Shown here one piece after another: positions 5 to 63,984 of a stretch of DNA of 64,000 nucleotides. Both the position numbers and the translations under genes were made by a program. Below the pieces are notes generated by a model, which worked only from the letters and a program-made list of their open reading frames with translations, was not told the DNA's origin and made no database searches. Position 1 is the stretch's first letter, and each line of letters opens with the position of its first letter. Origin of the DNA: Amoebophrya sp. A120 (Eukaryota; Protista; Dinoflagellata); assembly GCA_905178155.1 (NCBI GenBank), contig CAJINV010000005.1, positions 2,730,054 to 2,794,053 on the forward strand, written 5' to 3'.

Positions 5-3000
5 TTGAAGAGTGTATCGGCGGTGGGCGGGGGAGGAGGTGGTGTACAACTGGGTGGATCAAGATCTACTTCCAACACGACGAGTTCTATGGGCAATAAA
101 CCACTTTTCTTCGCCCGGGAACGGTCGATCCGGACGGGTTACCTACAGGATTCCACCCTCACCGCGGAGAACTTCGGGTTTGAAACCGCGGGCGACGAGG
201 AGATTTTCCAGCTGCTCCAGGACCAATACAAGGAAGAAGTCGTCCCCTTCGACCAGGCCGCGCTCGCCGCGGGCAGGACGCCGGGGGTGCTACCCGGCTC
301 CGTTGCGGACGTGAACTTCGCGATGGGAGGAGGTGGAAGTGGAACTACATCAAACTACAAAAACAGCACGCAAAACTCCTCGTCGTCCGCGGGCAATATG
401 CTGAACTACAACACGTCGCAGAACCATTTGGGGTCCTCCTTTCTGCAAAACACAATGGCAGACGTCTCCGGGCCCTACCGGTCCGTGCGCCAGATGCAAA
501 CCCCCCAGCACGTCGGGCCGAACGGCGAACTTTTAAATCTCGCCGGCGCTCAATCCAACCCGTATCCTGTGCAAAAGTATCGTACTCGTACAAATGCAAG
601 TCTTGCATTACAAATCTTGTTTCCAAGGCAAATCTGCATTACAAATTTTATTTCTCATGCTGGGGAAATTTGTAATGCATTTATACGATTACGATACTTT
701 TGCACTGCATAACCCGGGCAGTCAGCCCAACATCGGGTACAAGCCCTACTTGCCGGCGAACTCCACCGCCATGCCGGAGTTGACGAAAATACAGAGAATC
801 ATCCTCCACCGATTCCAGCAGGACCAGCCGACCAAGCTCTTCCCCCATGCGTACCGCGTGCCCGCGTTGAACAGAACACCTCTGCGGGAGCTGGTTCTCC
901 TCGTTTTGAAAGAAGCGCTCGCAGTGTTACCGAAAGACCAGGACCACGCGGAAGCCCCGGCCAGCGACAAGCAGAACGAGAAGATCCGCTTGGCGATCGC
1001 GGTGTTAGGTTTGGCGAAAAACTACCAGGAGGAGCACATCGATTTGGACCCAGCGAGACAGGGCGGGACCTACTTGACGAACAGTTGCTTCCAGGGCTTG
1101 TACTTCCTGGCGGAGAACTACCCGGACAACCTGGACTCAGTTTCTGATTTGTACCAACGGTTGGATGAGGTCGCGCTCGCGCCGGTCGTGATATCATCAA
1201 CCTCTTCAGGCGATGTAATTGGTGGAGGACGTAGCAGGACCACTGCGGGACAGCAACATCATCATGGCGCGATCCCACATTCCCGGTCGAAGTCTACCGC
1301 CGGTTCGCAGCACGAACCTCATAGTTCCGCCCGGTCAAGCGGGCGGAGGCACTCCGGAGACAGAACCGCACTGCAATCCGGAGGAGCCCAGCGCTCCGTT
1401 TCCGCCACTTCCGGGGCGGGTGGCGCTAACAAAAGCCGATCGCCCCGACTGTCCTCCGCGTCGCGCTCCGGGTCACCCAGACAGCCGCATCTTTCGCCGC
1501 GGTTGCAGGCTGCGGGCAGAGCAGGAGGACATTCTAGGAGTAAAACGACCAGACAGGAGAAGCGCACGAAGATCCACCCGTCCTGCCTCCCGTCGCGGGC
1601 GCAGCTGAGACAGTACAGCGACTTATCGATCGAAAGGAACCACAAAGAGTATTTACTCGTTCTGGAATTGATTCTCCAGTGCGTCCGGATTGCGGAGTTC
1701 CGCGAGGTGGGGTTGAGACTGCTCTCGACCAGCTTCAAATCTAGATACCGTGTGTTAGACTCCATCGCGGACAGCCGGACGGAGTCCTTCCGCTACCGCC
1801 CCGCCTTTCTGCACCGAATCCTTCTCTCCCAGGCAGTGACGCTGTTCAAACTGCAAACCTTGGAATTGTCTCTCGTCCACAAGCTCGCCGCGGAGTTCCG
1901 GACTAAAATGCTGCTCGGGATGAGAACGACGAACAGCGGAATCAATAGTAGGAAGAAGCTGTTGCACAAACAGTTCGGAATGGTGCAGGAGCACGAAGAC
2001 TACATGGAATTGGAATCGGAAAACCTCTTCGAAGACCCGACTATCGATGGCACGAGCGCCACCGCCGGGCTGTTGCTCACGCCCGCGGAGCGGCAGCGCG
2101 GCGAGTTCTTCCAGGCGACCACGCAGAACCTTGCGGACGAACTGGTCAGCCGCGTGAACCAGGTGACAAGCAGCAACGAGCCGCTATTTGCGGCGAACAT
2201 GCGGCATCTAATGGACGGGTTGGCGCAGCTGTCGCCGGCGGATATTGGAAGTGGTGGTCCTCGTGGGGGGTCAACAGCGTCCTCATCGAGCGCCGGCGTT
2301 GCTGGAATCAGGTCGTCCTCCTCCGCATCCCTACCCCTGGATCTCGAGCAGTACTTGAAGCTCGCCCTGGACGGCTCGCAAACGCGGTCGAAGTACTACG
2401 ACGAGCCTGCGGACGCCGCGAAGAGGAGAAAAACAGGTTCTACTGCGAGGAATTTCGGTAGTGGGAGTAGCACCAGTCAGCACTTTTGTGCGGAGATCGC
2501 GGCGGAGCAGGGGATGTTTGTGGAAAATTCATCATCGACGCTGTTCAATGCGGGAGGTACAACTGCTGGTGGTCCTCCTCCTACCGACGCCGGTCGTGGT
2601 CCCGGGAATTATATGGCATCAAGCAATCCAGCGAATAATTCTTCACAGCTGGCGTTGATGGACTACGGGCAGCAGCAGATGAGCAATGTCCCCTTTAACC
2701 AACAAGCAATCAACACCAATTACACGGCCACCACCTCCAAAACCGCGACCTCCAATGCCCTTTTCTACGACACCTCCAGTTTCTACCAGCTCGCCGGGCT
2801 TCTGTTTCTCACCCCCTACTTCGAAAGCCAGCGGCAGGTGCAGTCCATGACCACGTACGGCACGTCCACCGGCTCCATGGGCTATTCTGAGTAAAAACGT
2901 CCCCACCCCAGAGTTGTCATGCAATTCTGCATGCCAAAAAAGTAAAAGTTTCTCATGCGGAGCCCTATGAGAAGCATTCTCTCTTCGTGTTTTGGGATTT

Positions 3001-6000
3001 GTGATGCTAGAATCAGCATGACATGCTAGATCTGTGATGCTTCTGAGCTAGCTAAACAGGATTACACTACGTGGACAAACTTGTCATGCCAAACAACCAA
3101 AGCTGTGTGATTTGTCTAGCAGATGACTCTGTTGTGGGGACGTTTTTAATCAGGATATGGCCATGCCCGTGAACAGTGTGTTGTCGACGAACCCGGGTAC
3201 TCTGGCCTATCTGGATTTGCGAGCCCGGAACGTGTGCAACTTCCTCCACCAGCAGAACCGGCGGAAGATTGCCGCGGACTTGACGACCGAACTGGGACAA
3301 ACCTTCACGGAATTTCTCTACTGGACCCTGATCTACACGAAGCCGGACCACGAGTCGCTCCGAAGTTCGTTCCGGAACCTGATCGACGCCGGGATTTTGT
3401 CGGCGGAAAAGGAGTTTTTCAAGCAAAAACTCCTCGCGGAGACCACCGCGACGGGGTCCAGCTCGAAGCAGTTCTTGATGGTGTACTCCAGTCAAAACGC
3501 GGCGCTGCAGATCCAACTGACAGAAGCCGCGCGGCAGGAGTTCTGTGCGAACTTGCTGTACTTGGTCACGAACAGCTTGTTGAAAGCGTCGGCTGAACTT
3601 CTTGCGGAGAGGACAGGAGCACGGGAAGAAATATCAAATCCTGAAGAGAAGACACAGAAGATTTTCGCCACGACCGCCACCATCGACAACGCGAACGGGT
3701 CGGTTCCCATGTCGTTCTTCCACAACTTGGCCCAGAAGCTGTTCAGCTTTTTACCCGTTTTGAATAGCGGGACCTCCTCCGCGTCAAAGTTGGCGATTTA
3801 CAGTGCACTCATACAGCTGCTGGGGAAGATTTGCGGCACAGAAGTAGATCTTGCTGGAGATGAACCAAATTCAACTAGAGTAGAACAACGAGAGTCCTCT
3901 CAGACGAATCCTCACACGAGAAAATTCCTGGTTTCCTCTACCACCGAGCACGACCAGTCGGTGAGTATGCTGCTGCAGGATGCGTTGGCGAATGCGAAAC
4001 TAGATTCGAACTCCATCAACATCGCGGTGTCCAGCCTGTCCGTGCTCCGTTTTTTGGTCGAGAGAGACGAGGTTTTGCTTTCCGCCAATTCCACCTACCT
4101 CTGGCAGTGCCTGAAGCAGATTCTGAACCAGGCCTTCCGGTTCGCGAAGCAGACGAAGGACATGCGGTTCGTCCGGGCGGTGCAGGCGTTGGTTGTGGCA
4201 ATGAAACTGCAGGAGGAGAGGGGGGATAGCAGTGTAGCAGGCGACATGGACAACGACCAAGATGCACCATTTGCAGCAAGAACATCCGCAGGTAATACTA
4301 GCGACGACGGTCTATCAGGAGCATCAAGCTTCGTTACCGCCATGTACGAATCTGGTTTTCTTTCCCTCTGGTTCCAGGGCGCCGCCAGCATTTTCCTCTC
4401 AAGCGAAATCGCCGGAAGTGGGCTGGGCTTCGGCTCCTTGACCTCCGCCGCGGGAATTAATACTCATGGCGCCGGGGCCCCGGGTTACAACTTCAGCAGA
4501 GGCGCAGGAGGACGGGCGAATTCATCTTTGCAGAGAACAAGATCCGAAACCGCTGTGTTGGAAGCCACGGCGCTCACCCTGATCCAGTTTCTGGCGACCA
4601 TGATAGTCGTGGAAACCGATGAGGGAACCAATGAAGGAACAAATCAGCCGTTTTACCTGTGTCAGGAGCAACTCTTTCAGGAGCTGGAGTCCTTTCTGGT
4701 CAACTGCGTCGAAAAATCCCAACTGGTCCAGGAATCCTGTACCAACGCCGTCCGAGATTTAACCACGATCTCCGCGCTCGGAGTCTCAGGGACGAGTGGC
4801 GGCGGATTTCTGTCCTACAATAGCGACGCGATGCCGAGTTTCAACAACCCGCCAAGAAGTAGGATGAATACCAGAACTGCACAACACCAGCAGCATTCAA
4901 ACCTTCAGCGATCGATGCAGCGAGCAGCTTCGTCAAAGTCCGCCTCCTCCGTCTCGATTGCGTTGCTGTCCCAAATCCTGGCGCTTCTCAGCAGCTGCAG
5001 CACGCACTCGCACTTATCCTACGTGGAGACAGGGACGCAGGAGTTGAGTAGCTCCAGCGGAATTATGGCAGGAAGGAATCTATCGAACCTAGTAGCGCAG
5101 CAGACGACAACGCTCGCAATCAGGAATGACAACGGGAATGCATCGATGGGAGTCGACGTAAGTTCCGGCGCACCAGCACAACAAGTGGGGGTAGGAGCCG
5201 CAGGAACAACATCTGCGCCTTCCCAAGCAGTTCCGTCGATAAGCAAGCGATCGCTCCTCCTGTCGCAATTGGGTAAGGACCTGCTGATTGCGTGTTCCGC
5301 CTCTGCGGGCCTGAATCGGGACGCAAGCGACATGACCATGCATTTGTTGAACATTTTCCGCCTGGACCTGACAGCACTGATAACCGGGCCACGGGCGGCG
5401 AGAATACCGGACACGCGAAGTCTATTGCAGCAGACCGCGCCAGGTACGACTAAGTATATATAAGTAGAGTTGTCCTCGTGGTCGGTATACATAGTGCCTT
5501 ACATCACGCGTTCGATTGCTACACACTTAAAACATTTTTGAGGGGGAATGCAGGCTAACTTAGCAAACCTCCAGTAGTTGTGATGCAGAAAAACCATGAA
5601 TCAAATTCAAATTTTAATTTCAGGTAACCTCCCCTCTGGTTTTTCCGCGGGTGGAAGTCTGTTGGGTGCCGTGCGAAATTTCTTCACCGGCCAGAGACAA
5701 TCGTCGCCCTACAGCAGGCCACAGCCAAGAGACACGACGGCGCAACCGCAGCAGAGCGGCGGTGTTTACAATGGTGCCGCAAGTAGAACTACAAGTAGCT
5801 TCCCCGCGAACCAACAAGACACCAGCACCTATAACCCGATGCTCGACGGCCAGCAGCTCGCAGAAGAGATTGACGCTTCCGGGCGGTTGCTCACCCTGGC
5901 CGAGGCCAGCCGACGCCTCAACACCACCGCTGCGGGGCTGCAGTACGCGATGATGCACCATGGTAGTGGAATGGATCATCAGACGGAAAAGGAAAATTTG

Positions 6001-10033: not shown

Positions 10034-13000
10034 ATGTTTGGCAACAGCAAGAAGCTCGAAGAGCTGGAGAATCAGCTCAAGGAAACGCAGGAAAAGCTCA
10101 CCGCTGCAAACTCCACCATCCAAGCCAACACTGGGGAGATCACAAAATTGAAGGCGGTAAACCTTTTTGGGTTGTAGTTGTATATGTATGCACTTCGAAA
10201 TCTGCATATGTTACGACACGGCAGCCAGCTAGATGTTATAGAATGGTGACTAGTACGACACTGAGATTGATCAATTTCAATGCCAAAACATCACGATCAC
10301 AAAACACAGGAGGAGAAGAAGACCAAAGACGCGCTGACCAAGAAGGAGCAGGATGCGAAAAAGCTGCAGCAGGACAAGGAGAAAGTAGACAAGGAAAAGC
10401 AAAGCCTCCAGAAGGAAATCAAAGATAAGTGGGAGAAGGACCTGAAAACTGCGAAGGACAAAGCGGCCGAGGATAAAAAGAAACTGAAGGAAAAGCACAA
10501 CGATTTACAAAAGGAGAGGGATGAACTGCAGAAAGAGACGGACGAAAGGATAAAATCGCTTTCCCTGGAGAAGCAACTTCTCGAGCAGAGCAAGGCGGAG
10601 TTGGAGGAGAAAAAACAGGTTTTGGAGACAACTCTGGAGCGGAAAAACAACATCATCCAACTCCAGGAAGAGGATTCGCAGACGGCGAAGTTTTTTTTGG
10701 ACGTCAGTATCGATGGGTGCGAGTTCGCCAAGCCCTTTCCGTATTTTTTGACCGTCCAGCTGGGCGACGAATTTACAAATCCGCGGAAAACGGAAACCTC
10801 CGCGTCCACACAGTACCCGGAGTTCGAAAACAGCTCGTTTTTGCTGCCCTTCCACGACGAGGACACGGAGAACCAGTTACTACTGAAGTGCTTTGTCGTG
10901 GTAAATCCGGAGCGCGGGGACGAGTCGACGGTGAAGCAACTAGGCGAAGCGGTGGTGTCCTTGCACGAGCTGGGCGCGTTGAAGTCCGAGCGGCAGGATC
11001 CGAGGTTACAGGAGTTGAGGCAGAAGACCATAGTGCAAAACGCGAGTTTTCTGCGCAGGATAGACGGGGCTGGTACTGGAGCTTCGAAATCATTTACTCA
11101 TAGAAATCGATTTTCCACCTGTTCTTAAAAGTGATCTACGTCAGAAGTCACCCGGGTAGTATTAAGACGCGCCGTCGTGCGGATCTAAATCAAACCTTTA
11201 CCTTTGTACACGTATCCAGGTAAAGAGGCCGACGTGGTTCTTGTCGGCAAGTCCATGTTGCGTATCGAGAAAAAGCTGCTAAAGCCGTCGGAGTCGCTGA
11301 AACTCCAGCTCCAAAGTGCCGATGGCGCCACGGAAATAGAGCGAGTGCGCGACAAAGCACTCGCTGAGGAGCTGAACCAGGGATTATGGTAGTAGATGTA
11401 GATTGCTTTGTGAAAAAGAACTTCGTTGATACTTTTCGACGAGAATGAGTTATGGCGCTTTTCATGCATTTGGAACTTGGGTTGCACTCCAACACAATCA
11501 GGACCATGATCTGCGTTCACATGTAACCAAAAACCCCATCCCCAGGCTCGTTACCCCGTTTCAGCACCGGCTCCGTATCCTTTGCCACTGCGCCAAGGAC
11601 ATTCTGTACCAACAGGGCGGGGGTTCCAGCTCCTCCTCAGCGCCAGCACCCGGTGCTGCAGAAAAGGTGGGCGTTCCAGCAGGAGGAGAAAATATTCGTA
11701 GTGCTGCAGGAGGTACAACAACTTCTATCGACAATAGCCTGATCACCGGCACCGAAGAGAAAAGCTCCTCCTCCACTGCAAATCATCCGTCCAACACAAA
11801 AGGCACCAAACTCGTTGTCACGGCCCGAATTTTGAAATTTGACGGCACTGTCCTCTACGAAGTTCCATCGACCGAACACGAATTGAGTTCCGCGCAGTTC
11901 GGCACGGCGAGTCGGGCAGACATTCTAGATTACTTGCTAGTGAATGAAGAACTTGTGCTGCCGTTACCCAACACAAATTCGCTCTACGACGACCCTGGCG
12001 GAACGAGTTCCTCAAACGTTTTACGGGACCAGCGGTGCGAACTTTCGATCACAGTGACAAATAGGAAGCATGTGCAGGAGATTTTTTCCGTCCAGTTTTT
12101 TTTGAACGTGTTGCCCGCGTTCGAGCCGGTCACGGTTCACTGCGCGCCAATATCAAATGTAAAAATGTCTGGGTCTGGAAGATTGCAACTTGTGATGCTG
12201 TCTCTGCATTATACAAAAATCTGTATTGCATGACCAGCAAGAGGGCTCCAGTTTGTGCTACATGGAGAGGGTATTTCTCATGCGCTATAGGCATCAGAAA
12301 GCCCGCTAAAAATCTGTGATGCCAGGTTCTGCATTACAGACGTCATGCGTCTTGTAAAATCTGCATGAGCATGACATCCAGACCCAGACATTTTTACATT
12401 TGATAGCCAAGCGGAAGCAGCACTTCAAATTTGTCCAGTGTGGTGATGATGGGCAACGGAAGAGAAGGAACGGCTTCACAATCGGAATTCTCGAACAATA
12501 AGCCACCCAAACCGCAGCTGTGCTTCACTGTCACTCGAGAAATCCCCCTGCCCGACATAGCGGAGACCTACCACGGTCTGGAATTTCGCTGCCACGGGAT
12601 TCCGACAGCGAGGCCTTTGCCAGAAATGGCGAATCACGCGGTTCTGCTGGTCTCGCCAGATTTCCCCACGACCGCGGAGACAAATATGCCGTCGCCGCGG
12701 GTCACGGTTGTGAGGTATAGGAGGATATTATGCTGTTTCGAAGTCTTTAGTTGTGTTTGGAAGTCTTTCGTTGTTCCGAATGTTTTTTATTGCATGGCCG
12801 TAGTGGTTGCCATTTTGATTTTGCTACTTGAGCAAATAATAATAATTAAATCTGGTGCTCGTGCTGGTGCTCCTGGTGAATCCGAATACAAATTGAAATT
12901 GCCTCGTGAATCATCATGCACATAAAAAACGAAGTGCAAGAATAACTACGCCCCTCAGATACCAGTACGACACGCAGCGCGATCTGACGTCGATCCTCGA

Positions 13001-14918: not shown

Positions 14919-15693
14919 GAATGCGGTCGTGGGCTGCGCCGTTATGTGTTGGCGGGACACACAAAATTAGTGATCTTCATCGCTGGTACGTTGATTACGT
15001 TGCAAGTGCAAACAAACCAAAAATTTATTTAGAAACTAATTCTGTGCGACACGACGACTGTCGTGACAGTCACAGTGACTTTGTTTTACATTTCCTCGAC
15101 AAATTCGTATGCGAAGCGGAGAATAGTGACATGTGATCATGTATGTTATGGTCACACGCGAGTGGCTAAGGACTGTCGCTGATATGCGACGGATCAGGCT
15201 GACAAGAAAAAGCAGATGGCCGTAAAGACCGCGAAAGTCAATGTGGCGGATTTCCCCCGCATATATGATGTGATGTGCTGCATCATGATGTTCATGTATT
15301 CCAATTACTCAGTTTGATTTTGTGCGGTTCCTGTGAGGATCCGCTTTCGAGGTGCAGAAGGCAGAGAACAATGATCATACTTAACCTCATCGGGAAGTCA
15401 TTTACATTTTGAAAAAATTCATATTGCCTTTGCTTCCACGATCACTTCTGTTCCTTTTTCTTTTTGGTCCACGGGACTGTTTTAACTTCTGATTTTTTTG
15501 CTCTTTTACTTTTTGTAAGTACGGTACCTGACTCACTCTTTGTGTTATTTTTGTCGCTCGTTATTCATTCTTATTTCACATCCGATTAAAAAAGATCGTA
15601 TGCCTGCTATTCATTTAGATCTAGTGAAAAAAGTTCAGTTATTTTCGTCTGTATTTTCAGCCCACCTACCCCAACCGTTATTCTCCGCGAGAG

Positions 15694-18511
15694 ATGTTCG
15701 CAAACCTGTTCGACCAACAGCTTCCCGAGTTTCTCTACGACGCGCCGCCGCTCCCAGTTTTCGTTGCCTGTGTCGTGTTGCTGATCACGGTACTACCAAC
15801 ACTGTGGCGAACTTTATTCTCTGGAGGCGATGGCACCCTCGACAATCAGGACCATGACAGGAGCTCGTCGTCCAATGCAAACGCAGAAAACAAGCAGAAT
15901 GGAAGACCACCAGCGGACTCATCATCATCTGTGGCTCCCACTCGAAAAACCACAGCTCCTGCAAAGAAATTCCGCGACGAGCGTGCCATCGTTGTCGTCA
16001 TCGGTGACGTTGGACGGTCTCCGCGAACCATGACACACGCAGTGGAGTTTGCGAGAAATAACGTCTACGTCTCGCTGATCGGCTACTACCCAAAAGGAAC
16101 GAAGAACAACGCTTTGCCGCAGGAACTCACGGATTTGGAAGACAAAATCGATTTTGTGCAGCTGCCGGCTTTTGTCTGTCCATTCCCGAAACTTCCCTAC
16201 ATTTTCTACCTCCTCTGGCGCGTGTTCCACGACCTGTGGCACTTCTGGTTCGCGCTGGGGAGCGTGTCCTTCACGACGTACTTCCGGAGAGCGCAGAAGA
16301 TCAGCTGGATTCTAATCCAAAATCCGCCCATGGTCCCGCAGTTGTTCGCTTGTAAATTGGTACAGATGTTTTTGAAGGTGATGACCCTTGCCTGTCTGAA
16401 GCGAAAGCAGAGCCGAACAAGGCGCTTTCCAACCATCGCAGTGGATTTCCACAATTTCGGCTTCACGATTCTGTCACTGAAACTCGGGGAGCGATCTCCG
16501 ATCACGAAAGTGTTGAAGTTCGCGGAGAAATTGCTAGCGAGGACCTGCGTCGACGTTGGCTTTACAGTAACACACGCGATGAAGGAGGAGCTGGTGAAGA
16601 ACTGGAATTTGAAAACCATCCCAATCGGCGTTTTACACGACCGGGCACGGCCGCCCACCGAGGTTTTGCGGGATGTTGTGCTGTTTTGGGACTCGTTGGC
16701 GGACCGCGGATTTTTGAAGGAATTACACTCGTGTATCAAGTGTAAAAGTGTCTGGGTCTGGAAGATTCTAAACTTGTGATGCTGTCTCAGGATTCGAAAA
16801 AATTTTGTATTGCGTGACCAGTAAGAGGAGTAGATTTTGTGCTCCGCGGAGATGGCATTTTTCATGCCGAATAGGCATTAGGAAGTGCTCTAAAAATCAG
16901 TGATGCTAGGCCATGCATGACAGGCATTATGGATCATGCAAAATATGCATGACAAATCTTGCAATCTCCCAGACCCAGACATTTTTACACTTGATATCGT
17001 GGAACAAAGAAAAGCTGAGGCAGTTCTTCGAGGAAACAGCGGACGAACAGGGAAAACTGCAGGGTTCGACGCCGATGAGCTCGCCAGGTAGTAGTTGCGA
17101 CCAGCGCGAGGACAATTCCGTCGGGGGAAGCCCCTGTCCGAGCAGTTCTGCTGAGGACGAAAATTTTCCGAAGAAGGGAGAGGCGGAGATCTCATCTCGC
17201 AGCAAAGCGACTCCGTCGTCGTTTTCAAAAAAGCAGTTTAATCTCTTCTTTAAATCACCACCTACAAGCGCAAGTCACAACTCCTCCTCTCCGTCTGACA
17301 TCAGTGCAGAAAATTGCATCACCCTCGGAGATACAACTCCACATTCCGCCATTCCAAAACCGCTGCAGATGCGGTTGACAAACCGAGACTGGGACCCGAT
17401 CTTGACGTCGCACTACGCCAAAGCGCGTAGGGAGTGCTGCAACGGCAAGAATGGTGGATCTTCGATATCTTCGACTTCTAGAAGCAGTGCTCCTTCATCA
17501 CCGCCGAAAAAAGTCCTTCATCTACGAGTTGGGTCGGTGGAGGAGCAGCGCAACCCTCCAGTACCAACGTCCGTCGGAATGTTCGGTGTCTCCTCACCCA
17601 TTATTTCCCCTTCACATTCTTCCGCCGCAACTTTTCTGGAAAACGACCCAGACACCGTGAAGGTCGTAAGCTCGACCAGCTGGACGGTGGATGAGGACTT
17701 CACGGACCTGTTTCACAGTCTCCCTGAGATCGCGAAACGGATGAAACCGAAGAAAAAGCTTGTGGTTTTCATCACGGGGCAGGGGGAACTCCGGGGGTTT
17801 TGGCAGAAACATTGGCAGGAGAAAAGGGAGATGGAGATTGGAAAGGACGACGCTACCGGAGTGGTTGTGAAGCTCAAAGACCGCATCCGCGTGCTGTTCC
17901 TTTTCCTCCCCTGGGCCGATTACCCGCAACTACTGCAAGCCTGCGACTACGGGCTCTGCATGCACCAGAGCTCCAGCGGGCTGGACTTACCGATGAAGGT
18001 ATCATTCTTTTTTTTCCGTTTTTGCACAAAGAAGAGCTCCGGGCCGGATTCTTTTCCGGGTGGAATTTGTTCCTCAGTACCAGCAGCCGTCTACTTCTTG
18101 CGAAAACACATACAGGTCGTCGACATGTTTGGTTTCGCGGAACTGCCCGTGGTGGCAAAAAACTTCCAAGCGCTGCCGGAACTCGTTGTGGATATTCCCT
18201 GAAAATTAACCATCCCCATCCAATTTGTCATGCAGAACATGGAGGAAAGTCTGTGTGTGTCATGCAAAAAGTGGATGGGGATCCTTAATTTTGATTTTCA
18301 GGGGATAGTGGACCATGTGAACGGATTTACCTTCACGACCAGCGACGAACTGCGCGACCATTTGGTCTACTTGACGAACAACCACGCAGACGAGCAGTTT
18401 GCAAAACTCGGGAGAATGCGGGTTGCGATCCACGAGTCTTTCCACTCCCCGGAGACAACATGGCCGGCGGTCTGGAAACGGGAGGTGCTTGCGCGGTACT
18501 ACAGCGGGTAG
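15694..18511 (+). CDS. ALG1: Chitobiosyldiphosphodolichol beta-mannosyltransferase; exons 15694-16733, 17002-17998, 18116-18192, 18313-18511
   Basis: Motifs VVVIGDVGRSPRT, LIQNPP, DFHNFGFT, VSSTSWTVDEDF, HQSSSGLDLPMKVVDMFG, ELVVDHVNGFTF. Continuity needs two introners and one GT-AG intron removed. Confidence 0.93.
16734..16996 (+). mobile_element. Introner family A copy (forward), 263 bp, in ALG1
   Basis: TIR TATCAAGTGTAAAA(G/A)TGTCTGGGTCTGG; TSD TCGTG; removal gives ELHSWNKEK. Confidence 0.93.
18193..18307. mobile_element. Short introner, 115 bp, in ALG1
   Basis: TIR TAT(T/C)CCCTGAAAAT; TSD GTGGA; removal restores the conserved ELVVDHVNGFTF. Confidence 0.9.
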
Positions 18512-18977: not shown

Positions 18978-21746
18978 ATGCGTCGCCCTCGTGCCCGAAA
19001 AAAGGGGCGCATAGATCAACTACCGTGGCTGTCGATCATTGCAGGAGCAGCCGCACTGCAACTTCTTCACGCCCTTCCCAGTGCGGGGGCGATTCAAGTC
19101 AAGAAAACAGCAGCCAGCAAAAATGGTAATGGAGCAACAGCGGCGCACCAGTTGAAGAAGCATAAGATCTTCACGAGAGCAACCGCCAACGAGAGCCCCC
19201 ACGCTGCCCCAAACACACCCGTGCACGACAACCCCTACCCGGCCGTCCACGACCGGAATGAAGCGGACTTTGTCGAGGACACTGACATATCAAATGTAAA
19301 AATGTCTGGGTCTGGAAGGTTCTGACACTTGTCATGCACGTTTTGCATGAGCCCTGATGTCTGTGATGCATGCCCTAGCATCACAGATTTTTTGAGAGCT
19401 TCTTGATGCCTATTTCGCATGACAAATGCCCTCTCCACGTAGCAAAAATTACATTCCTTGTGGTACTCATGCAATACAGATTTTTCTGGAATCCAAATGC
19501 AGCATCACTAGTTGCATTCTTCCAGACCCAGACATTTTTACATTTGATACGACAAGGACGACGGCAGCTGGCAGGCCAACAACCGGTACGACACGCTGCG
19601 GCACAGCATCGCTATCAAATGTAAAAATGTCTGGGTCTGGAAGAATGCAACTTGTCATGCTGATTTTGGATTCTAAAAAAATCTGTATTGCATGGGCAGC
19701 AATAGGAGCCCAGTTTGTGCTACGCGGGGAGGGCATTTGTCATGCGGGATAGGCATCAGGAAGGCCTCTAAAAATATGTGATGCCAGATCATGCATTACA
19801 GACATCCTGAGTCATGTAAAATATGCATGACAAACCGGGGACGTTCTTATGCAGTCAGCTGGATGACTGTGACCTGGCTCGTACTGTGAACGCAGCTGGA
19901 TGACTGTGACCTGGCTCGTCTTCGATGGGCAGGCGGATGACTGTGACCTGTCTCGCCCATCAAGATCCCTAATCCGTAGCTCCTAGACGTTGCCTGGCCC
20001 GCGAGTGACCTGGTTATAAAGGGCTTCGTCGATCGATTGCGCCACTAGGGCCTTGTGTTCTGGCTACTCCGGATCGCAATCGATGGAGGGCGGGACCTGC
20101 ACCGGCGACAGGCGCTATCCAACCAACCAACCAACCAAACCTGGTAACCTTCCAGACCCAGACATTTTTACATCTGATAATCGCGCACGCCAAGGAACTC
20201 GCGGCCAAAGCCAAGGAAGATCTTCCGGGCTACACGCTCAGGTACGAAGAGTCGCAAAAGCATTTCGGGTCGTTTTCGGAGCGGAAAAAGAGTCTCGACG
20301 AGGAGGTGAAAGCGATCAAGGAGCTGGAAGACGCGGAGTTCGAAAAGCTCGTCGAGATCAAGAAGCAGAGCTACGAAGAGGAAATTCTGGTGAAGAAAAA
20401 GAAAAAGCTGCTCGAGCAGATGATCGAAAACCAGCGGAAGAGGGAGGCGGATTTTTTGAAACAGAAACAAGAGCTGGAACAAAAGTTGCAACAGGAAGAG
20501 AAGGACTTGCAAGCCCAAGTGGACAAAAGCTCGAAGGAATTGCAGCAGGCGGAGGACTATCAAATGCAAATATGTCTGGGTCTGGAAGGTTGCAACTTGT
20601 GACGCTGTCTCTGAATTCGAAAAAAATTCTGTATTGCATGACCAGCAACAGGGGTCCAGTCTGTGCTTCTACGCGGAGAGGCCATTTCTCATGCGGGAGA
20701 GGCATCAGGAAGCCCTCTAACAATCTGTGATGCTAGGTGATGCATTACAAGCATCATGGGACATACAAAATATGCATGACAAATGTGGCTTTCTTCCAGA
20801 CCCAGACATTTTTACATTTGATAAGGAGAATTTCGAGGAGGTTGAGAGAATGATCAAATCCTCGGACGAATACGACAAAACTTCGAAAAGCGTCGACGTG
20901 CTAGCGGCGAAACGGAAGGAGTTGGTGAAAAGGCAGGAAGATTTTGAACGGGAGTACAAACAAGTCGTCGAAAATCACGAAGCGGCGGAAAAAGATTACA
21001 AGTTCGCCAAGCAGAACGTCTTGGATACGAAAGAAACGGAAGAGGCGCTAAACGTACTTCTGTTCTGATGATGTTTTTTGTATTGTGATGCGTACTTACC
21101 CTTACGCTACTGGAACTACTTACACCAGCTACATATTTTTACATTGCCATCATGATGCTGATGGATCTTCGCAATACAAATCTTATCAGGCCGACCTGGA
21201 CGACGCCGCAGCCAAACTCTCCGAATACTCGACCAGCGATACCAACCCCTGGTCAGGTATGGAAGTGTCAGAATCGAAATTGGCAAAATCGAAAAACTTG
21301 TGATGCACAAAATCGATGTCAGTTGGAGCCTCAGTTTTTCAGTGGCGCATAACAAATTTCGGAAGCACCCAAACCCCGTCTGTCATGCTGTTTGGACAAA
21401 GAAGACTCCTCCTGTCATGCTGCTCTGGCAGCACATTGTATACTCCAAAACAGGCTTACAATCGGTCTCATTTGCCTGCCCCCCAATACAGGCCTTCGGT
21501 GTCGGTGTCCTACATTTTATGCATCACAAATTTTTGTTCGATTTTGTCGATTTCGCTTCTGACACTTCCATATCAGGCTTGATGGGCGGGGACGTGCAAG
21601 AGCCCGAAAAGGAGCCGAAAAACAGCTCTGGTCGCTTGTTTCACTTGAACCCAGCGGTGCTGATCTTGCTGTTGGCAGGTTTGATCGCGCTCAGCATGGT
21701 GTATGTGTCGGGTGCCAGCGTCTCAGTGCTGGTTTGGGGAAAGTAA
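18978..21746 (+). CDS. Hypothetical coiled-coil protein with N-terminal signal-like segment and C-terminal TM helix
   Basis: N-terminal WLSIIAGAAALQLLHALPSAGA, E/K-rich coil, C-terminal AVLILLLAGLIALSMVYV. One frame results after removing four introners and one GT-AG intron (~21054-21189). Confidence 0.75.
19288..19549 (-). mobile_element. Introner family A copy (reverse), 262 bp
   Basis: Family A TIRs; interior is the reverse complement of the 12151 copy; TSD TGACA/CGACA; removal gives DTDKDDGSW. Confidence 0.92.
19613..20179 (+). mobile_element. Introner family A copy (forward), 567 bp, carrying a nested insertion
   Basis: Family A TIRs; TSD ATCGC; removal gives RHSIAHAKEL; 305 bp longer than the 262-bp sister copies. 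Confidence 0.92.
19837..20135 (+). mobile_element. SINE-like non-autonomous retroposon with (CCAA)4 tail nested in an introner
   Basis: TSD CAAACC (19831-19836, 20136-20141); empty site CAAACCTGG is present in the 33588 copy; three GGATGACTGTGACCTG repeats; microsatellite 3' tail. Confidence 0.75.
20558..20823 (+). mobile_element. Introner family A copy (forward), 266 bp
   Basis: Family A TIRs; TSD AGGAC/AGGAG; removal gives QAE(D/E)NFEEV. Confidence 0.92.
21258..21572. mobile_element. Introner, 315 bp, whose TSD creates GT-AG boundaries
   Basis: TIR TATGGAAGTGTCAGAA(T/G)CGAAAT; TSD TCAGG; removal gives PWSGLMGG. Confidence 0.9.
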
Positions 21747-22388: not shown

Positions 22389-25300
22389 ATGTCTCTCTCC
22401 GCCCTGTATTGCGTGGTCTTTGACAACGCGCGTGGGCCTGTCGTGCGGGGCGGCTCGGAAACGAGTTTGCTGGTGAAGGGTGGCCACCCGCTAAACGATG
22501 CACAGGTCATCCTGGCCAAGCATGGCGAGCACGAAAAGGGATGGAAGCCGCCAGACGCGAAGAAGCAGGCTGTGGAGAGTAACAAATCCGTCGTGCGGGA
22601 AACAATTACAAGGCAAGCCGCCGCCGGCTCGGGTGGATCATCATCATCAGCATCATCGCGAGGAAATAAAGACGCGGCATCCACAGCAGTAGTAGGCCAG
22701 CCCTTGGCGGGAGACGAGGATTGCCACGCCGCCGTATCTGATGCAGCCGAACCTGCACAACCCGCGCAATCTCCGGTTGCCCCGCCCGAGACCGACAACA
22801 GCACAGCAGAGCGGAGATCTCCAACTAACGACGAGGACGAAACCTTTGACATGCAGCCCGAGCCCTCGTATTTTTGTCCCGACCAAAAGCTTATCAAATG
22901 TAAAAATGTCTGGGTCTGGAAGAATGCAAGATTTGTCATGCATATTTCTCATGACCCATGATGCCTGTAATGCATGCCCTAGCATCACAGGTTTTTTGAG
23001 GGATTCTTGATGCCCATTCCGCATGACAAATGCCCTCTCCGCGTAGCAAAAATTAGACTCTGTTTGCTGCTCATGCAACACAAATTTTTTAGTCATCGAA
23101 ACGCAGCATCACAAGTTGCATTCTTCCAGACCCAGACATTTTTACATTTGATAAAGCTCTGCGGCCAGAGCATCCACATCGTGGACGACGCGAAGAACAC
23201 GGAATGGTGCGGCGTACCCTTATACCTCGAGTCGGAAGCCTACGACCGGTCCTGCTTCCGCTTCTGCATCGTGGCGCAGGCGAAATTTGACGACAAGTGC
23301 TACGGCCTGGCCAGCATCCAGTCCGAACACGAGAAGCTGGAGTTGCTGGATTACTTCGAGCGGAGGTTTGCATTGTTGGCGGTGAACCTTGCGCGGCAGT
23401 TTGAGGCGCTGGAAACGGAGCTGCAGTTCGTCTCCACGTGCACCGAGGGCCAGATGTCCCTGGTGTTGCACGAGTGCGCGCGACAATTGAGGTCGGGCCA
23501 GGACTGTTTGACCCCGGTGTGGTGGCCGGTCTGGGTGGACAGGTGGATCCGAAGCGAGAACGAAAAGAAGATCGGGGGGAAGGTTAAAGAGGTGCTGAAA
23601 AAGGAGGAAAGGAGAAAGCGGGATAAGCATGTGGAGTATGTGCGAAAACAGGAGGCAATCAGGCTTGGAAGTAAACATAGAACGGGTACTAAGACCTCCA
23701 AGATGCCGAGAGGGCAACAGGCCAGCACCAATATGAGCACTGCAGGTGAGGGAGATGGCACCACCACGAGTGCCGCTGCAGCTGCCTCCGCCACTGCAGC
23801 TTCTAAAGGCTCCACACTTCTACCGCCAGGAAGCGCCACCGCTGCTTTTCCTGTTGACGAATACCCGCCAATGCAAAAAGCCATTTCTTTCGGTCTCCCG
23901 CCCGTCGGAAGCACCAGTGGCGACGAGCTAATACCAGCAGCAAGCTCCATGTCCTCCTCGTTGTCTAGTCAGCAGCAGCACCCAAAAAGCGCTGACGTTG
24001 ACGGCGTTGCTACTAGAAACCTCGACGCCGCAACGGACTACAACCTGCCTCCGCAGGAGGCATTCTACCCCGTCCCAGAAGTATCGCAATCGGAGCTCGC
24101 CCGACAGCGCGCTTTGGTGGACAAGTTGGAGAAGTGGGTGCTGTACCAGATGGCCAAGATGCACAGCCGGCCGCTGGAAGGCATGTTTCACGAAAAGCAC
24201 GTGCAGAGGTTTTTCATCGAGAGGGAAATCTCCGTACCGAAGTTCCGGATCCTGGATACTTGGCGCCCGCACTACGAGGCGTTCGGGCGGTTTCGATTTG
24301 ACCGACGACCACCGCCCAGCTGGACATGGACGGCGATCCTGTCTCCGGTAGAATGATGACAAGATTGAGCTATTTTGATGTGCTTTATGTTCAATCGTGC
24401 AGACAGCAGAGAAAGTGAAAGTGCAAGAAGAAAACCAAAACCGGCACTGTATGTATTAATTTGTAGATGATCAGTACGAAGTCATCAAAAAATAGTATAG
24501 AGCATCCAAAGATTTATCACGACTCGACACAACTACAGGAAAACGCCTCCGTCCCGAACCTCCCCACTCAAGCCACAGGTCAGATCGATCAGCACCAAAT
24601 GCAACTGCTCACCGCGAAGCGAGACGTGCCGCAGCACAGCCAGTACCTCGACAGGTACAGCACCCATACTACCAGCACGCCCCCGAGCGCCATGGCGGTA
24701 GCGGTGGAATCGGCACGGAGTGCAAGGGAGAACGAGCAATATAGCAACGTCGGGAAGGGTAAAGATCACAGCACAACACCTACGCATGCAAATGCCACCC
24801 CCGGAAATGAAGCCAATGCTTCTTCTAATGTCGGAAGAACTGCTGGCGCCAGCGCACCTTCTTCGCAAAAACCACCACTCGGCACCACCACCGCAGCAGC
24901 CGCATCTCCAACCGTGATAGACTCGTCAACCAAGCCCCCGCACCAGTACGATAAACCGGTTTACGCGATGACGGGGTCCACTCTCCCGATCCTCGACGCG
25001 TCTCGAGTCCCCGTGATGCTGCTGAGCCCGGAACGGCTGAATCGGAAATTCACAAGGTATGACGATGACCCGCTTTTCGCGGACGAACCGCAATTGGATC
25101 TGACTCTTTTCGAAGTCGTCCCCTTTATCAACGGTTTGCACAACATCTCCCAGATTGCGAAGCTTTCCGGCTGCGACTTGGAAAACGTCGACTTGGTCAT
25201 CCGACACTTGGTGAAAAGCCGCTGGGTGTTCATGATTGACCCGATTCACGAATTTGCGCTGTACCGGTTGAAGCCCGAATTTTACGACTTCTTCCACCGG

Positions 25301-40283: not shown

Positions 40284-40449
40284 GGTGCCTGGATCCTACC
40301 ATTGGCCCTACACACAGTCTACCCCAGAGAAAAGCACTAGCACACCCATACCAGGTGCGCACCTTGCACGCACATAGCCCCTCCGTTATCTACGTCTTTT
40401 AGTTGTAGCCGGAAAACGGTGCTTCTATCTACTAAAACTGACGCATGTC

Positions 40450-55000: not shown

Positions 55001-55119
55001 TGTTATAGGTAGACTGATCCCCTTCGGAAAGGGTTCCTTCGTCGTCACGTGGTCGTCTTTCTGCTGGCCAGAAGATCGTGTAAAAATTGCAGAGAAAGTT
55101 GAGTTTCGTACGCTATAGA

Positions 55120-57250: not shown

Positions 57251-58378
57251 ATGGTGAAGAAGACTATGGGCAAAATCGAGCAGAACTCTCTGCAGGCTCG
57301 CGTGCACCACTACGAAATCGTCGGGCGCGCCGCCCCTACGCAGAAGAACCCGGTCCCGAAGATCTACAAGCTGAAGCTCTTCGCCAAGAACCAGGTCATC
57401 GCCCGCTCCAAGTTCTGGTAAAAGAAGGAGTTTTTTTCGTTTCAGCATCGCATTTTTTCTGCAGGGCAGATTTAGTTTTTTTTTCTGCGGAACGATATTC
57501 CTGCCGCTGTCTCAGTGTGCAGATTTAGGTATCTGAGCGCACGAGTTGCGCTGTAGTTGCGCGGAGTCTTTAAATGTCATTATCTTCCTGCTTTACCAAA
57601 ATCCAACTCTTTCCCCGTCACCAACACAGGTACTTCATGAAGAAGATCAACAAGGCTAAGCGATCCGGTGGTCAGATCTTGCGTCAGACTGAATTGTTCG
57701 ACCAGGCCCCGACCAAGGTCTCCAACTACGGCGTGTGGTTGCGTTACGAGTCCCGCACTGACACCCACAACATGTACAAGGAATACCGGGACACCACGGT
57801 ATATTAGGATTTGTAGCCTTGCTGAAGTTGCATGTCGAGTGATTTTCTTTCTTGATGCTGAACCTGCGTGATACATGGATGTCTCGCATAAATTTAAAAG
57901 TGAAAAAGGGATATAGATATCCCCTGCAATATTCGAGAAAGCAAAGGCCGCGTCGGCAAGAACCGGAACTACTGTGTGCCTCTTCTAAATGTCACGTAGC
58001 TAAACAGCCCGCATGTCGTGTTATCATGAAGCATGCTTTAGATAGTCGACACAGAACAAATAAGCGTATCGAGCGATGGCTATTCGCATTGTCCGTCCCA
58101 TGTCTTCAAACTTTTACTTTTCAACAACAACAAAACAGCTGAACGGCGCTATGTCCCAGATGGTCGCGGAGATGGCTGGTCGCCACCGTGCGCAGGCTTC
58201 CTCCATCCAGATCCTGAAGACCGCGGTCATCCACGACAAGTCCGCCATCCGCCGCCCGCACGTGCTGCAGATGCTGCCGCAGAACCTAAAGTTCCCGAAT
58301 GTCCGCCGCATGCCGTTGATCCCGAAGGGCGAGAAGAAGACCTTCCGCGCCACTCGCCCGACCACCTTTGCGCAGTAA
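57251..58378 (+). CDS. RPL18A: 60S ribosomal protein L18a (eL20); exons 57251-57417, 57630-57798, 58139-58378
   Basis: [26 protein letters not shown]|[30 protein letters not shown]|[23 protein letters not shown]; two GT-AG introns. Confidence 0.97.
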
Positions 58379-59228: not shown

Positions 59229-62200
59229 ATGATGGGTTCGTGTTTCCATCCAAGTTCCACCGGCACATGGTATGCTCAAATACGAAGGCAAGACTTCCAC
59301 ACCGCATCTCGAATTAGCCGCGCAATGGCGTCGCTTCCCAGGCTTGCGGCAGTGCTACACTATCTTCTTTACGACACCGGACAGCAGCACGCACTCGCAA
59401 TGGACGCACCTATGGGCTTTGGAATCGGTCAGCAGCAGCGTGGGGTTGTGTCGGCGTCTACTTCAGAGAGGACATCCTCGGTAGAAACACACGACGGCGC
59501 GTCGGCGTCGGCGCTGCTCCAACCGCAGCAGAATCAGAACTCAGGAGAGCAGACCAACACGATTTTCGAAGTCTCGTCCGACCACTCGAAATTCGGTGTG
59601 TCACTGATCCCGGAAGAAACAAAAATCCAACTCACGCCTCCAAATCGGTATTTCCGGCAGCCGACAGCGGAAGAAAACATGGCGAGTCTCCGGTGCACGA
59701 GTAGTCAGGATCTTCAGGTGGATTTCCTTTACGTAAAAGACGTCCTGTTCGGGCTACTCGATTACGCGTTTGGTGGGGCGAATCAGAAACAAGACCCGGC
59801 GAAAAACGCATTCGCGCGGCAGCTGACCCGAGTCCAGCATTCGTGGCACAATGTGGCGACATTGCAGGTAAGCTATCGTGCTAGATCGCTGTGTAGTGTT
59901 TTGCCATTGCATTTCCTGCTTGATAGAGCTTTGTATCTTGAAGACCACAAAGAGTGTTACTGCAACTCTCGATGATGTTTTGTGGTTCTTACTTCCGCGA
60001 ATACCATGCGAAAAAAATGTCAACACAACAGTAGGGTGGTTTCGACGACTGTGCGCTGGGCTTCATTGTGCTTCGGTATGAAATGCGAGAAGCAGCAACA
60101 AATAGACAGAGAAGCGCTTGGATTTCAGTAGTAAAACTTCCAAAGCTTTTGTATTGCGTTTTGAGGAGCTGGAGTGCGACGAAACATTTACTTTTACCTT
60201 TACGTTGGTCTTAACAATACTTCCTGCTAGTAGATAACTGCTTTCCGCTTTCCATACCCTCCTGTGGTCCGTTTCCCTGAAGCCGCCCGTGTATCGTTGG
60301 CACGAACTGACGCAGAACGCCTACCTCCCGGAATTTTTTGCGCTGCTGAACACCGCGATCTTGAAAGAGCCGCTCCCCTTCTCAACGCTGATGCAGACCG
60401 GTTGGGGCTTGCCGCTGTTTTACCAGATGTACCAGATCCAGGAGGGTCTATTTCCAAGGGAAAATCTGTTCAACGCCGGCCCCGGACAGGAGGAGGCAGC
60501 GCACGGGAAAGAGGAAACTATTGGCGTGCCATCGCACAATGAAAAACATTTACAGATGGGCGGAGAGGTGGACGAGGTTCAAGATACTGTGCGTGTTGAA
60601 ACAGAAACCACAGCTAGTGTGTCTTTTTCGGCGAGTGGTGAGCTTGTGCGGGAAGGGACTCTGGAAAGAAGTGCGGAAAAAGCATTGTCCATATTCGACC
60701 TCGACGAAGCGGCGACGACCTTCGCAATTCTCGGCGAGGAGTACAAAATCCCCGGAGAGGAGGCGGAACCGCAGCAGCACAGCCAGGGTCCTTCGAACGA
60801 ATCCCTCCTTCAAACAGTCCAGTGCGTTGACGATGTCGACCCGGCACAGCAACTTGTTGCTGACCAAGACGCAGCTCGTGTCAAAGTGGAAGAGCAGAAC
60901 CCCATCTGCCTCGCCCGCCGTGCTGTGCGTGACGGCGACCCAAGTTTGCCGCGGGACTCGATGCCCCGCCAGTGGATCCATGTAGACACGGCGCGAGGGC
61001 ATTTCCGCGCGCTGCGGAAACAGAAGAAGGAAGAGCAGATAAGTAGCGAAGATGTTGAAGAAAACAATGGAGATTATACGACACCACAGACCGCTGCGCC
61101 TTCGCCAAAACCATCAACCCGTCGTCGAGACAACTACTACAAGAATTTTCGCGCCAACTTCCCCGCCTGGCCCCGGGCGTTTTTCGAGCATCCAGGGTAC
61201 CTTCGGCTGCTTTCTGAAAAACCGCTCGCGGAAGAAGGACTTGCGATTGCGCAGGACATCCTGGACGCGACGGACGGGGCGCCGACGGTCGAGGACCCGG
61301 TCGAATTTCTTCACCAATTTGACCTGCGGGAACACCAGGTGGTCCAAACCGGCGCGCACTTTGACGAGTGGCGGGCTCTGCTCGCCGCGCCGATTCACAA
61401 GGAGAAGCTATTGCAGAACAAACGCCTGATCCTCTCGCCCCACGGCCACCTGACGCACGAGACAGATTTGCATTTTGTCCGGCACCTGGTCGACGTGGCC
61501 GAAGCGGTTTTGGACATTGGCGATTCCCTCGTGTCCGAGTCCTACGCGCAGCAGTACCTGCAGCGGCTGCTGTGTTTGCACGATAACAGCGGGGATAAAG
61601 GAAAGTGCAGCACGATGGAAGATCTGGAGGTGTACGAAACGCTGTCCCCTTCTGATGTTAAAATGGACGAGGAGAGCATGCGGAAACGCGGTTTGGAAAA
61701 CGGGTTGGTCACCGATAAAAGTATGGCGTTCTCAAACGTTACATTCTCAACTATTACATGAATTTGTAATGCAAGAACGGCGAAAGTGAAAGGGACAAGA
61801 TTGCGCCTTGTGCATCACAGATTTGGCACAGATTTACATGCTGATTAGCCCTTCGGATGTTTGTCATGCGAAGCAGCTTAATCGTGGCGATCTTGGTGGT
61901 AAATTTGCATGACAAATCATGTAACAGTTGAGAATGTAACAGTTGAGAACGCCATAAAAAGCTACTACTGGTTCGAACCCGGGTCGCTACTGATCCCCGA
62001 AGCGCGGTTGTTACTCATGCTGCGCGCCAGGGGGGAGATTTACCGTCGGGTTTCTCTAGACATTTTCAACCTGCGCTGGGACCCGGTCGCGTTCGCGTTT
62101 TTCGCAATGGAACTCGCGTTCCAATTTGCGCCCGACAACGACGACCGAATGGCGAAGCTGAATTTGGTGCAGCGGTTGATGGCCGGGTTCGAGGGACGGA

Positions 62201-63984
62201 GGAGATGTTTCGGCTTCCGGGAATCGATTGTGGATGATTTGGTCCGCGAAAAGAGAGCAGCAAGTCGTGATAAGGACCTATCACAGCACCAAAATCTCCC
62301 CGCCCGCCCCCTGCGCCTGAAACTCGCGTCCCCGTTCTGGGACGTGCTCGCCTTCGCTTGGGGTTTGCCAATGTACTTTGTCGAGGTTGCTCTCGATTGG
62401 CAACGGGAGGAAGTTGCAAAGATCGACGAGGTCGAAAGGCGAATCGCGGATACCCCGGGAGCGTTAGTGAGCAAGAAAAGCGTACGGCTGCTGGAAAAGA
62501 GGTGCAATTTGGTCTTTTGCAAGACGTTCCAAACGCCAAACAACGAGAACTGCAAGTGCGAAACCTGGTTTCCGAGCATATTAGCGGGAAGGAAATGGGC
62601 GTCGACGTCGGCGTCGCACTCAACACAGCTCGCAACAACAGCAGCGCAGGCACAACTGATAACGCCAAACAAAATCTGCATCTTCGTGACCGATACACGC
62701 CCGATCAACGTAGACCTTCGGTACATCACATCAGTTACCTCGACCGACGAGTGGTGGAGCTTGGCCTACGGTATCAATTTCCTCTACGCGAAGGAGCACG
62801 ACTACCGGATAGAAAGGCATCTACGCAAGAGAAATTTACTGCACATGCACAAGAAAGTGCATCACAAGATATGGCAACGACCTCTACGAGAGCGAATCTG
62901 TAGGTGTAATGCGGAATGAGGTTGAAGTAAATAAATTAAAAAAAAGTTTTGTCATGCCATTGCCACCATGTCTATCTCTATGTACATGCTGGAGTGCAGA
63001 AAAATATCCTGTGGATAGCACCGGGCGGAGTTGCACAAGGAAGTAGCGGACGGGAACGGGGAGACGGACAGCCTGAACCGCTGGAAAAACGACCCGAGCC
63101 GGAAGGTGGGCTGGGCGAAAATGAACATCATGCTCAGGCGGCTGCAGGAAATGGGCGAAAGCACGTGCGAGTACGGGGTTTCGATGGATAGCGACGCGTG
63201 GTTCAAGACGAATGAACCTCTGTCCAACATTGTGGACTACTTCATGAGGTTTTACTCGAAGCCGAGAACTAGTGGTGGTCCAGTCACGCGAGGGACGCCG
63301 GCAGAACATCAAAACCAAAATGTTCCACCCTCCGGTGAAAGTGAAATCGAAAAGCCTTCTGCTGGTCTTCCAAATCTCGTGCTGACCCCGATGCACGGCA
63401 ACGTCCAGTTCGTGAAGGACACCTATGCAGCACAACATGTTGCGGGAACATTTTCTACTACTCAACAAGAAAATCTTCATCCGAAATTATACGATTTCGT
63501 GAAAGCGGACCACGAGATCAAGTTTTTTATCGCTCAGGAGCTGGATGCGCACGCACCCGCGAAGGACCAGGTTGTTTGGAATGTGGACAAGAAAGACCCG
63601 CGGAACCGAAAGATTCTCTCCTTCGACGTGGAGTTGCAGGAGGAAGTGAAGGGCTTTGTTCCGAGAGAACAGGTGGAGCTGACGAAGGCACAGGAATATG
63701 TTGCTACGTCTATCGCGGAGGAACAAACGGTAACAACCGGATCAGCGGAGGAATCGTCGGGAGGAAGGACGAGGGGTTCTTCCGTAGAGGATGCTCTCTC
63801 AGGGGACCGGCAAGGCGAAGAACCCCGACGTGCAGAAGAAGATGAACAGGTACCGACTTTTCAACAAGCGCAGTCTTCGCCCTACCACCCGCAGTCGCAG
63901 TCTTCCTTCAAATCCCACGGCAGCCGGCGGGGTAACGGCGGGTTTTTCGTTGTGAAAAACGTTACAAACGGCCACCCCTGTTAA
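59229..63984 (+). CDS. Large protein with C-terminal GT34 (GMA12/MNN10)-like glycosyltransferase domain; probably continues past the window
   Basis: INFLYAKEHDY, GWAKMNIM, MDSDAWF (DxD), GNGGFFVVKN; exons joined over one GT-AG intron (~59867-60233) and two introners. Confidence 0.6.
61722..61956. mobile_element. Introner, 235 bp
   Basis: About 50-bp TIR TATGGCGTTCTCAA..GTTACATTCTCAACT; TSD AAAAG; removal gives TDKSYYWFE. Confidence 0.92.
62822..63017. mobile_element. Degenerate (old) introner, 196 bp
   Basis: Decayed TIR TACGCAAGAGAAATTTACTGCAC versus TATCCACAGGATATTTTTCTGCAC; TSD GCATC/GCACC; removing 201 nt gives IERHRAELHK in frame. Confidence 0.7.

Follow-up and report, generated by a model that had tools for sequence, protein, structure and literature searches.

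Introners of Amoebophrya A120 are the closest described relatives of the elements treated here, those of strain A25 having TTA ends. Their terminal inverted repeats (TIRs) consist of TAT, about seven variable letters and an A-run, with short (3-5 nt) direct repeats at the flanks (PMC7789003), and more than 60% of the introns in Amoebophrya A25 and A120 are reported to be non-canonical (PMC7789003). Among DNA transposons, hAT elements such as Hermes, Ac and Tol2 carry repeats near short TIRs that are bound by the BED domains of a multimer (PMC10368747), and hAT5 elements have 5-bp target-site duplications (TSDs; PMC12730594). We analysed a stretch of 64,000 nucleotides from Amoebophrya sp. A120 (contig CAJINV010000005.1, positions 2,730,054 to 2,794,053; hereafter the window), for which an earlier note had proposed that an internal motif, TGTNATGC on either strand, is common to all coding introner families. 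To judge from their sequence, the elements of the window match the published introners of Amoebophrya A120: they share with them TAT TIRs with an A-run, short direct repeats and the size of miniature inverted-repeat transposable elements (PMC7789003; PMC12130899), as well as the lack of a GT-AG requirement, donor dinucleotides of type NT (Table S4), co-oriented genes and many repeated families. In addition, a conserved motif is present, in several copies each, in nearly all introners examined. Unlike the available text of both published accounts (PMC7789003; PMC12130899), which describes only terminal repeats, the present analysis finds an internal motif with a defined spacing and helical phase. 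Neither GCAT nor TGCAT occurs in the main text of PMC7789003, and the text of its supplement lacks ATGC, while its figures, including S19 and S25, may show the motif; no published description was found in the Amoebophrya intron literature searched, nor for the motif strings among the matches listed.

A search for TAT...ATA inverted ends that was blind to the motif, combined with inspection of the coordinates of the earlier note, gave 14 elements in the window. Counting both strands, TGTNATGC has 55 matches in the window, compared with a mean of 7.67 and a largest value of 17 in 100 dinucleotide shuffles, and 49 of the 55 lie inside 13 of the 14 TAT...ATA elements (3,703 bp, with 5-nt target duplications). 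Of the six matches outside the elements, three fall in GT-AG introns, whose limits were set roughly by eye (three matches in about 2.7 kb). The motif was found at every site where the earlier note had listed it, with two to five copies in each of the 563, 2883, family A, 18193, 21258, 61722 and 62822 elements. Hence, the motif is real. It is longer than 8 nt, with a weight matrix reaching about A-A-T-Y-T-G-T-V-W-T-G-C, and its position N is never T in the family consensi. The string resembles Sox-Oct and C/EBP-ATF sites, a likeness which we take to be coincidence. A search for Rfam families in the window gave no match.

To extend the set, 130 further loci were matched by the family A end in one related assembly; none of them overlaps the window, and together with it they comprise 724,822 unique bases, in which family A is over-represented because the loci were picked by its end. 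A motif-blind scan of this DNA for TAT elements with an exact 5-nt duplication found 361, as opposed to 0-4 for ten control termini. Of 453 candidates, 44 that combined a weak TIR with a mismatch in the duplication were dropped; the 409 elements retained form 23 clusters, of which three singletons are long, insert-bearing copies. Element-homologous DNA contains 1,829 motif matches in 150,499 bases (12.15/kb), whereas the background has 0.43/kb where AT-rich, 0.30 in the middle class and 0.09 where GC-rich, an enrichment of about 28-fold or more, so that the lack of enrichment which would have spoken against the earlier note is not observed. TGTNATGC occurs in 12 of 12 family consensi, while no gapped 8-mer was common to more than 7 in 200 shuffles. 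The exact motif is carried by at least half of the members in 22 of 23 clusters, 17 clusters have two or more copies, and with the weight matrix only two of the 409 elements show no site and six a single one. A second conserved word, TAAACAG, is present in 4/12 consensi, namely clusters 3, 5, 7 and 11 (the 2883, 61722 and 21258 types of the window), and is therefore not universal.

The families are, by all sequence indications, kin. All 24 consensus ends begin with TAT, 21 of them continue with C or G, and A is found at end positions 11-15 in 16-22 of the 24. Internal modules are common to clusters 4/7, 5/10 and 6/10, and a 563-type end is joined to a family A interior in DNA contigs. With the TIRs cut off, 42 of 66 family pairs can be aligned, but only 3 of 66 once the motif is masked. 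The earlier statement that the families share no other obvious sequence is thus wrong, given the TAT ends, the A-run, the 5-nt TSD and the three alignable pairs; its description of the TIRs as unrelated is overstated. The elements avoid AT-rich non-coding DNA: in the window and loci L001-L078, both flanks have less than 44% GC in 5 of 338 elements, compared with 11.4% expected. The family A end has no match in viral contigs.

Comparison of copies within families indicates selection on the motif. In all 12 families its fixed letters deviate less from the consensus (0.03-0.125) than other internal positions (0.08-0.32), and N is free to vary in seven of the eight largest families. The fixed letters show 572 private differences from the nearest neighbours, whereas 1,345 would be expected for identical trinucleotide contexts, so that they change 2.4 times less than predicted. 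In the largest class, the rate of change is 0.111 at N and 0.114 at non-motif positions, but 0.049 in the core. Spacer length is preserved while spacer sequence drifts. Neutral decay from one ancestor is insufficient to account for this pattern, since the fixed letters are depleted of changes, N drifts and 63 of 66 masked pairs cannot be aligned; the conservation relative to flanks that the earlier note had suggested examining is present, and its counter-scenario of alignable descendants decaying neutrally does not describe these families.

The sites are also regularly arranged. Direct motif pairs 31-33 bp apart occur 20 times, compared with a null mean of 2.4 and a maximum of 10 among 5,000 nulls, and 13 of 20 families or singletons contain them. 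The first site that faces inward is 32-34 bp away from the end in 8 cases, 41-44 bp in 11 and 53-56 bp in 4, and over these 23 ends the distances cluster at a period of 10.25-10.75, which was reached in none of 2,000 nulls; with one value per family the clustering is retained (R=0.89, n=11, 0/3,000 nulls). The 3' distance in cluster 4 is 55 in 15 copies and 44 in 7, and in family A it is mostly 41-42 (88 copies) or 33 (40), a step of 8-9 that is therefore not a full helical turn. The helical repeat is about 10.4-10.5 bp in B-DNA and about 11 in A-form RNA. For the 99 within-element pairs up to 110 bp apart, a phase model with one offset, which places all sites on one helical face, yielded a mean cosine of 0.54 for a period of 10.4-10.5 bp but of 0.00 for 11.0; 300 null trials, run on a coarser grid, did not exceed 0.41. 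The phase signal is positive in 12 of 12 families, amounts to 0.47-0.55 in three subsets without relatives and is kept by the 40 direct pairs outside the 31-33 class (0.46 at 10.4 bp versus -0.56). No helical phase signal was seen for three control words.

We consider it probable, at roughly 0.6, that the motif forms an array of subterminal double-stranded DNA sites for one shared transposition protein that mobilises all families. That a helically phased site is common to at least a dozen families suggests one mobilising system for all of them. A multimeric transposase, or an obligatory partner, would occupy more than one site along the same helical face, and this multi-site binding would give the transposase avidity and position it at the short TAT termini. 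Elements retaining their sites and phase would go on spreading even as spacers and TIR interiors drift, and the families would diverge around an unchanged motif code. Removal from RNA would likely be guided by the paired ends, with a cut one base before TAT and no role for the motif. The motif could serve as pull-down bait and help to recognise the autonomous element, and mutations that kill the motif or shift it by a half turn versus a full turn could separate mobility from splicing.

Several known transposons show part of this organisation. Like hAT and hAT5 elements, the introners have short TIRs, several subterminal sites in both orientations, differently arranged ends and a 5-bp TSD (PMC10368747, PMC12730594); however, the Hermes site has 4 bp compared with 8-12 bp here, and the available text on hAT does not mention a strict 10.4-bp phase. 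The likeness to hAT is one of TSD and site arrays, and a superfamily was not assigned as no transposase was found; the main text of PMC6004678 gave no match for hAT5. IS3EU/GingerRoot elements have TA..TA termini, with TAYGG..CCRTA in fungal families, and some clusters here begin TATGG, but their TSD is usually 6 bp (PMC10045372), as opposed to 5 in the window duplications and in the removal of the element plus 5 nt. The P element and piggyBac/piggyBat likewise have internal transposase sites that are separate from the TIR and lie at set distances from the end (PMC7776569, PMC11707139); each of these is a single family with one or a few sites at either end, whereas here a dozen intron-acting families share them.

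Removal of the elements was assessed with contigs from four runs (X3-X6) guessed to be RNA, from one sample. All seven elements in 15,600-23,400 are skipped in these RNA-like contigs, each with exactly 5 extra bases, six of them in 4/4 runs and the element at 22892 in 1/4; two GT-AG introns are likewise skipped by the same contigs. Contigs of run X1, which is DNA-like, run into the elements, with no skipping joint among the 15 of 192 matches listed. Family A is removed from RNA-like contigs in both orientations. The skipped elements lack GT-AG ends, except for 21258, which is readable as GT-AG if cut after TSD letter 4. The mismatched duplication of 19288 requires a cut after letter 1 or later and that of 20558 a cut no later than letter 4, and at 2883 an RNA-like contig piece starting at 3162 would place it after letter 4 or 5. 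The mismatched duplications of these three informative elements point to one cut, after letter 4, so that the intron reads N-TAT...ATA-NNNN; if the cut position is uniform, the intron starts one base before TAT. This register makes 21258 GT-AG and agrees with Table S4, where the nine predominant sites of A120 are without exception of type NT; Farhat et al. (PMC7789003) called the splice position variable. At duplication letters 3-4, AG is mildly in excess (24/202 versus 6.6%, p=0.004, uncorrected for 9 offsets). The element at 19613 is removed despite 305 nt between its last site and the 3' end, and a 2.9-kb element with one weak site in the related assembly (L062:11263-14202) leaves an open frame once removed. 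This moves the search for the splice signal to the element ends, for which the published dinucleotides and the three informative elements indicate one cut position.

Some observations weigh against a transposition protein as the reason for the motif. The phase signal is weaker at copy level (0.27 versus 0.02), and as the families are related, the nulls of all geometry tests overstate significance and the p-values are inflated. Site orientation relative to the end varies, being reversed in cluster 1. The depletion of changes persists among copies with close neighbours (22/1,774 at fixed letters versus 142/6,074), which could also reflect selection after insertion. Motif conservation in exons and in non-coding DNA at first appeared flat, but the non-coding class consisted mostly of misclassified short exons and left 5 strict cases, so that nothing was concluded from this comparison. 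Both forms of the motif are present on the sense strand in 103 of 123 exonic elements and in 161 of 201 strand-assigned ones, none of the seven RNA-checked elements is antisense-only, and in predicted RNA folds motif bases are paired at 0.84, compared with 0.60 for others. Finally, the protein itself is missing from the sequences searched: eight long or insert-bearing elements contained no transposase-sized open reading frame (ORF; the longest stop-free frame had 231 aa), no transposase family was found by Pfam among 21 ORFs of the window, and the text of Farhat et al. reports no transposase in A120 (PMC7789003). Since no transposase was found, we infer the binding, the protein and the superfamily alike.

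The alternative that survives best, which we still regard as unlikely, is a host DNA-binding or chromatin protein on the phased sites, either as an architectural aid to transposition or as a chromatin mark recruiting non-canonical removal during transcription. The 10.4-bp period and the strand indifference would fit such a factor equally well, it would explain how one motif serves families with differing TIR interiors, and IRBP18/Xrp1 in P-element repair provide a precedent (PMC7776569). The depletion of changes among close copies also agrees with it, as does a 3.4-fold excess of the motif in AT-rich background (63 seen versus 18 expected), although this excess may represent decayed elements, and in exon-like background the count is near expectation (23 versus 16), so that the motif is not a general genomic signal. 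Moreover, the phase is anchored to the termini of the elements, at which a transposase cleaves, removal survives the 305-nt displacement of an end, and the frame around the 2.9-kb L062 element, with its one weak site, would be open upon its removal. A DNA-written splice code is more doubtful: here a DNA-binding protein on chromatin, perhaps a domesticated transposase domain, would deliver the transcript, as it is made, to the machinery of non-canonical removal. If true, one motif would permit the elements both to spread and to be excised from RNA whichever way round they lie.

A signal in the RNA, with the motif recognised by an RNA-binding protein or small RNA or forming conserved stems of the intron hairpin, has marginally less to recommend it still. 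The frequent presence of both forms on the sense strand and the predicted pairing of motif bases would be in line with it, U1 was not found in Amoebophrya according to the text of PMC7789003, and in Euglena an internal signature drives non-canonical splicing (PMC12501133). The nonconventional introns of Euglena resemble the introners in being non-GT-AG, with paired ends and a cut at a fixed offset, but their signature is strand-specific and within about 10 nt of the junctions (PMC12501133), while the motif here is at least 30 nt inside and strand-indifferent. Orientation relative to transcription was assigned with a coding model for 201 of 409 elements, in agreement with junction-level calls in 81 of 81 cases. 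The elements are oriented 105:86 in genes. In cluster 3, in which the motif is on one strand only, the ratio in genes is 10:10 (10 sense-only, 10 antisense-only, 1 both), and its motif is not preferentially paired in predicted folds (0.69/0.53 versus 0.60/0.61). Among the 201 strand-assigned elements, presumed to be spliced, the sense strand carries only the GCATNACA form in 21, only the TGTNATGC form in 17 and neither in 2; a strand-specific splice signal would be expected on the sense strand of every intron, and this was not found. In none of five families examined do the N letters of the 5' and 3' sites covary as a helix, in contrast to many positions of the TIR, and the period is 10.4 rather than the roughly 11 of A-form RNA. 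Binding to double-stranded DNA is favoured because of this period, the occurrence in both orientations and the lack of covariation between partner sites, and an RNA-level splice signal is disfavoured. Of the earlier proposal of a common site for the transposase or a removal factor, the shared, selected cis-site thus stands, whereas its version as an RNA-level removal signal does not fare well. Spread by reverse splicing was considered separately and is disfavoured, with the orientation of 105:86 and nearest neighbours concordant at 97:85, yet at 20:11 among the closest pairs.

The reading we deem very improbable is a leftover of common ancestry and of internal duplication of a roughly 32-nt unit, without present function: the TAT ends, 5-nt TSDs and modules common to families and the contigs joining a 563-type end to a family A interior agree with it, and common ancestry is likely true, yet it does not explain the motif conservation, as 63/66 pairs lose significant similarity upon masking, the fixed letters change less than context predicts while N drifts, and spacers keep length and not sequence.

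Seven of the elements in the window are copies of family A, with three to five motif copies each. Those at 12151..12405 (motif at 12191, 12315, 12331(-) and 12369(-)) and, in reverse, 33588..33850 (33662, 33678(-), 33802(-)) lie outside 15,600-23,400. The other five are removed together with 5 nt: 16734..16996 (16775, 16915(-), 16947(-)) as 268 nt, the reverse copy 19288..19549 (19330, 19362, 19378(-), 19417(-)) as 267 and 20558..20823 (20726, 20742(-), 20774(-)) as 271, each in 4/4 runs, and the reverse copy 22892..23153 (22934, 22966, 22982(-), 23021(-), 23106(-)) as 267 in 1/4 runs. The fifth, 19613..20179 (19653, 19738, 19777, 19793(-), 19825(-)), is interrupted, after its last motif copy and before the 3' TIR, by a nested insert (19831-20136) of some 305 nt and is removed whole, as 572 nt, in 4/4 runs. 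With its short internal repeats, a (CCAA)n tail, a 6-nt direct repeat and an 88% identical copy in locus L059, this insert looks like a small retroelement.

The remaining motif-bearing elements belong to other types. The cluster 1 type introner 563..711 (TAT...ATA, TSD ACCCG) has three motif copies, GCATTACA twice and TGTAATGC, at 605(-), 636(-) and 671(+); its removal with one TSD gives open frames, and no RNA joint was found for it among the joints listed. The cluster 3 type introner 2883..3157, with one mismatch in its TSD, carries the motif at 2915, 3000, 3016(-), 3033 and 3082. The smallest element, of 115 nt and cluster 8 type, is located at 18193..18307 and contains TGTCATGC twice, as one direct pair at 18226/18258, 32 apart and on the sense strand only; 120 nt including the 5 nt are removed in 4/4 runs. 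The same number of runs shows removal of 320 nt at the cluster 7 type introner 21258..21572 (21299, 21347(-), 21381, 21413, 21521(-)). At 61722..61956 a cluster 5 type introner has the motif at 61765, 61812(-), 61862 and 61907(-), and 62822..63017 is an older element with a degenerate TIR, starting with TAC, and sites at 62859(-), 62905 and 62950. The TAT...ATA element without the motif, at 37927-38206 with a TTCTA duplication, is non-coding and lies inside a GT-AG intron; it contains long nested inverted repeats and has no relative in the loci. A further TAT...ATA insert, at 37453-37633, has a weak TIR and no matrix site, and open frames result when it is removed with 5 nt, making it a possible motif-less introner.

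GT-AG introns near 14474, 31580, 33387, 55367 and 57799 (approximate positions) begin with GTAT, the start that an introner would show if its duplication ended in G, and weak motif sites persist in some of them. Such introns could be former introners that have become canonical. In the additional loci, L062:11263-14202, L075:1547-2930 and L027:10001-10972 have 0.7-2.9 kb of foreign non-coding DNA between introner ends; the L075 insert resembles window 49497-50146 (67%), and L062 contains short repeats that by eye are like those of window 48540-48700. The ORFs of window 40442-44171 may, as read by eye, encode a GIY-YIG-like nuclease and, after it, a reverse-transcriptase-like region, with no supporting match in Pfam or PDB, and the ORF 42050-43087 had no PDB match. 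A very long gene with an NPR2 domain occupies 22390-29457, and the gene for ribosomal protein L18a at 57251-58378 contains, by eye, only GT-AG introns.

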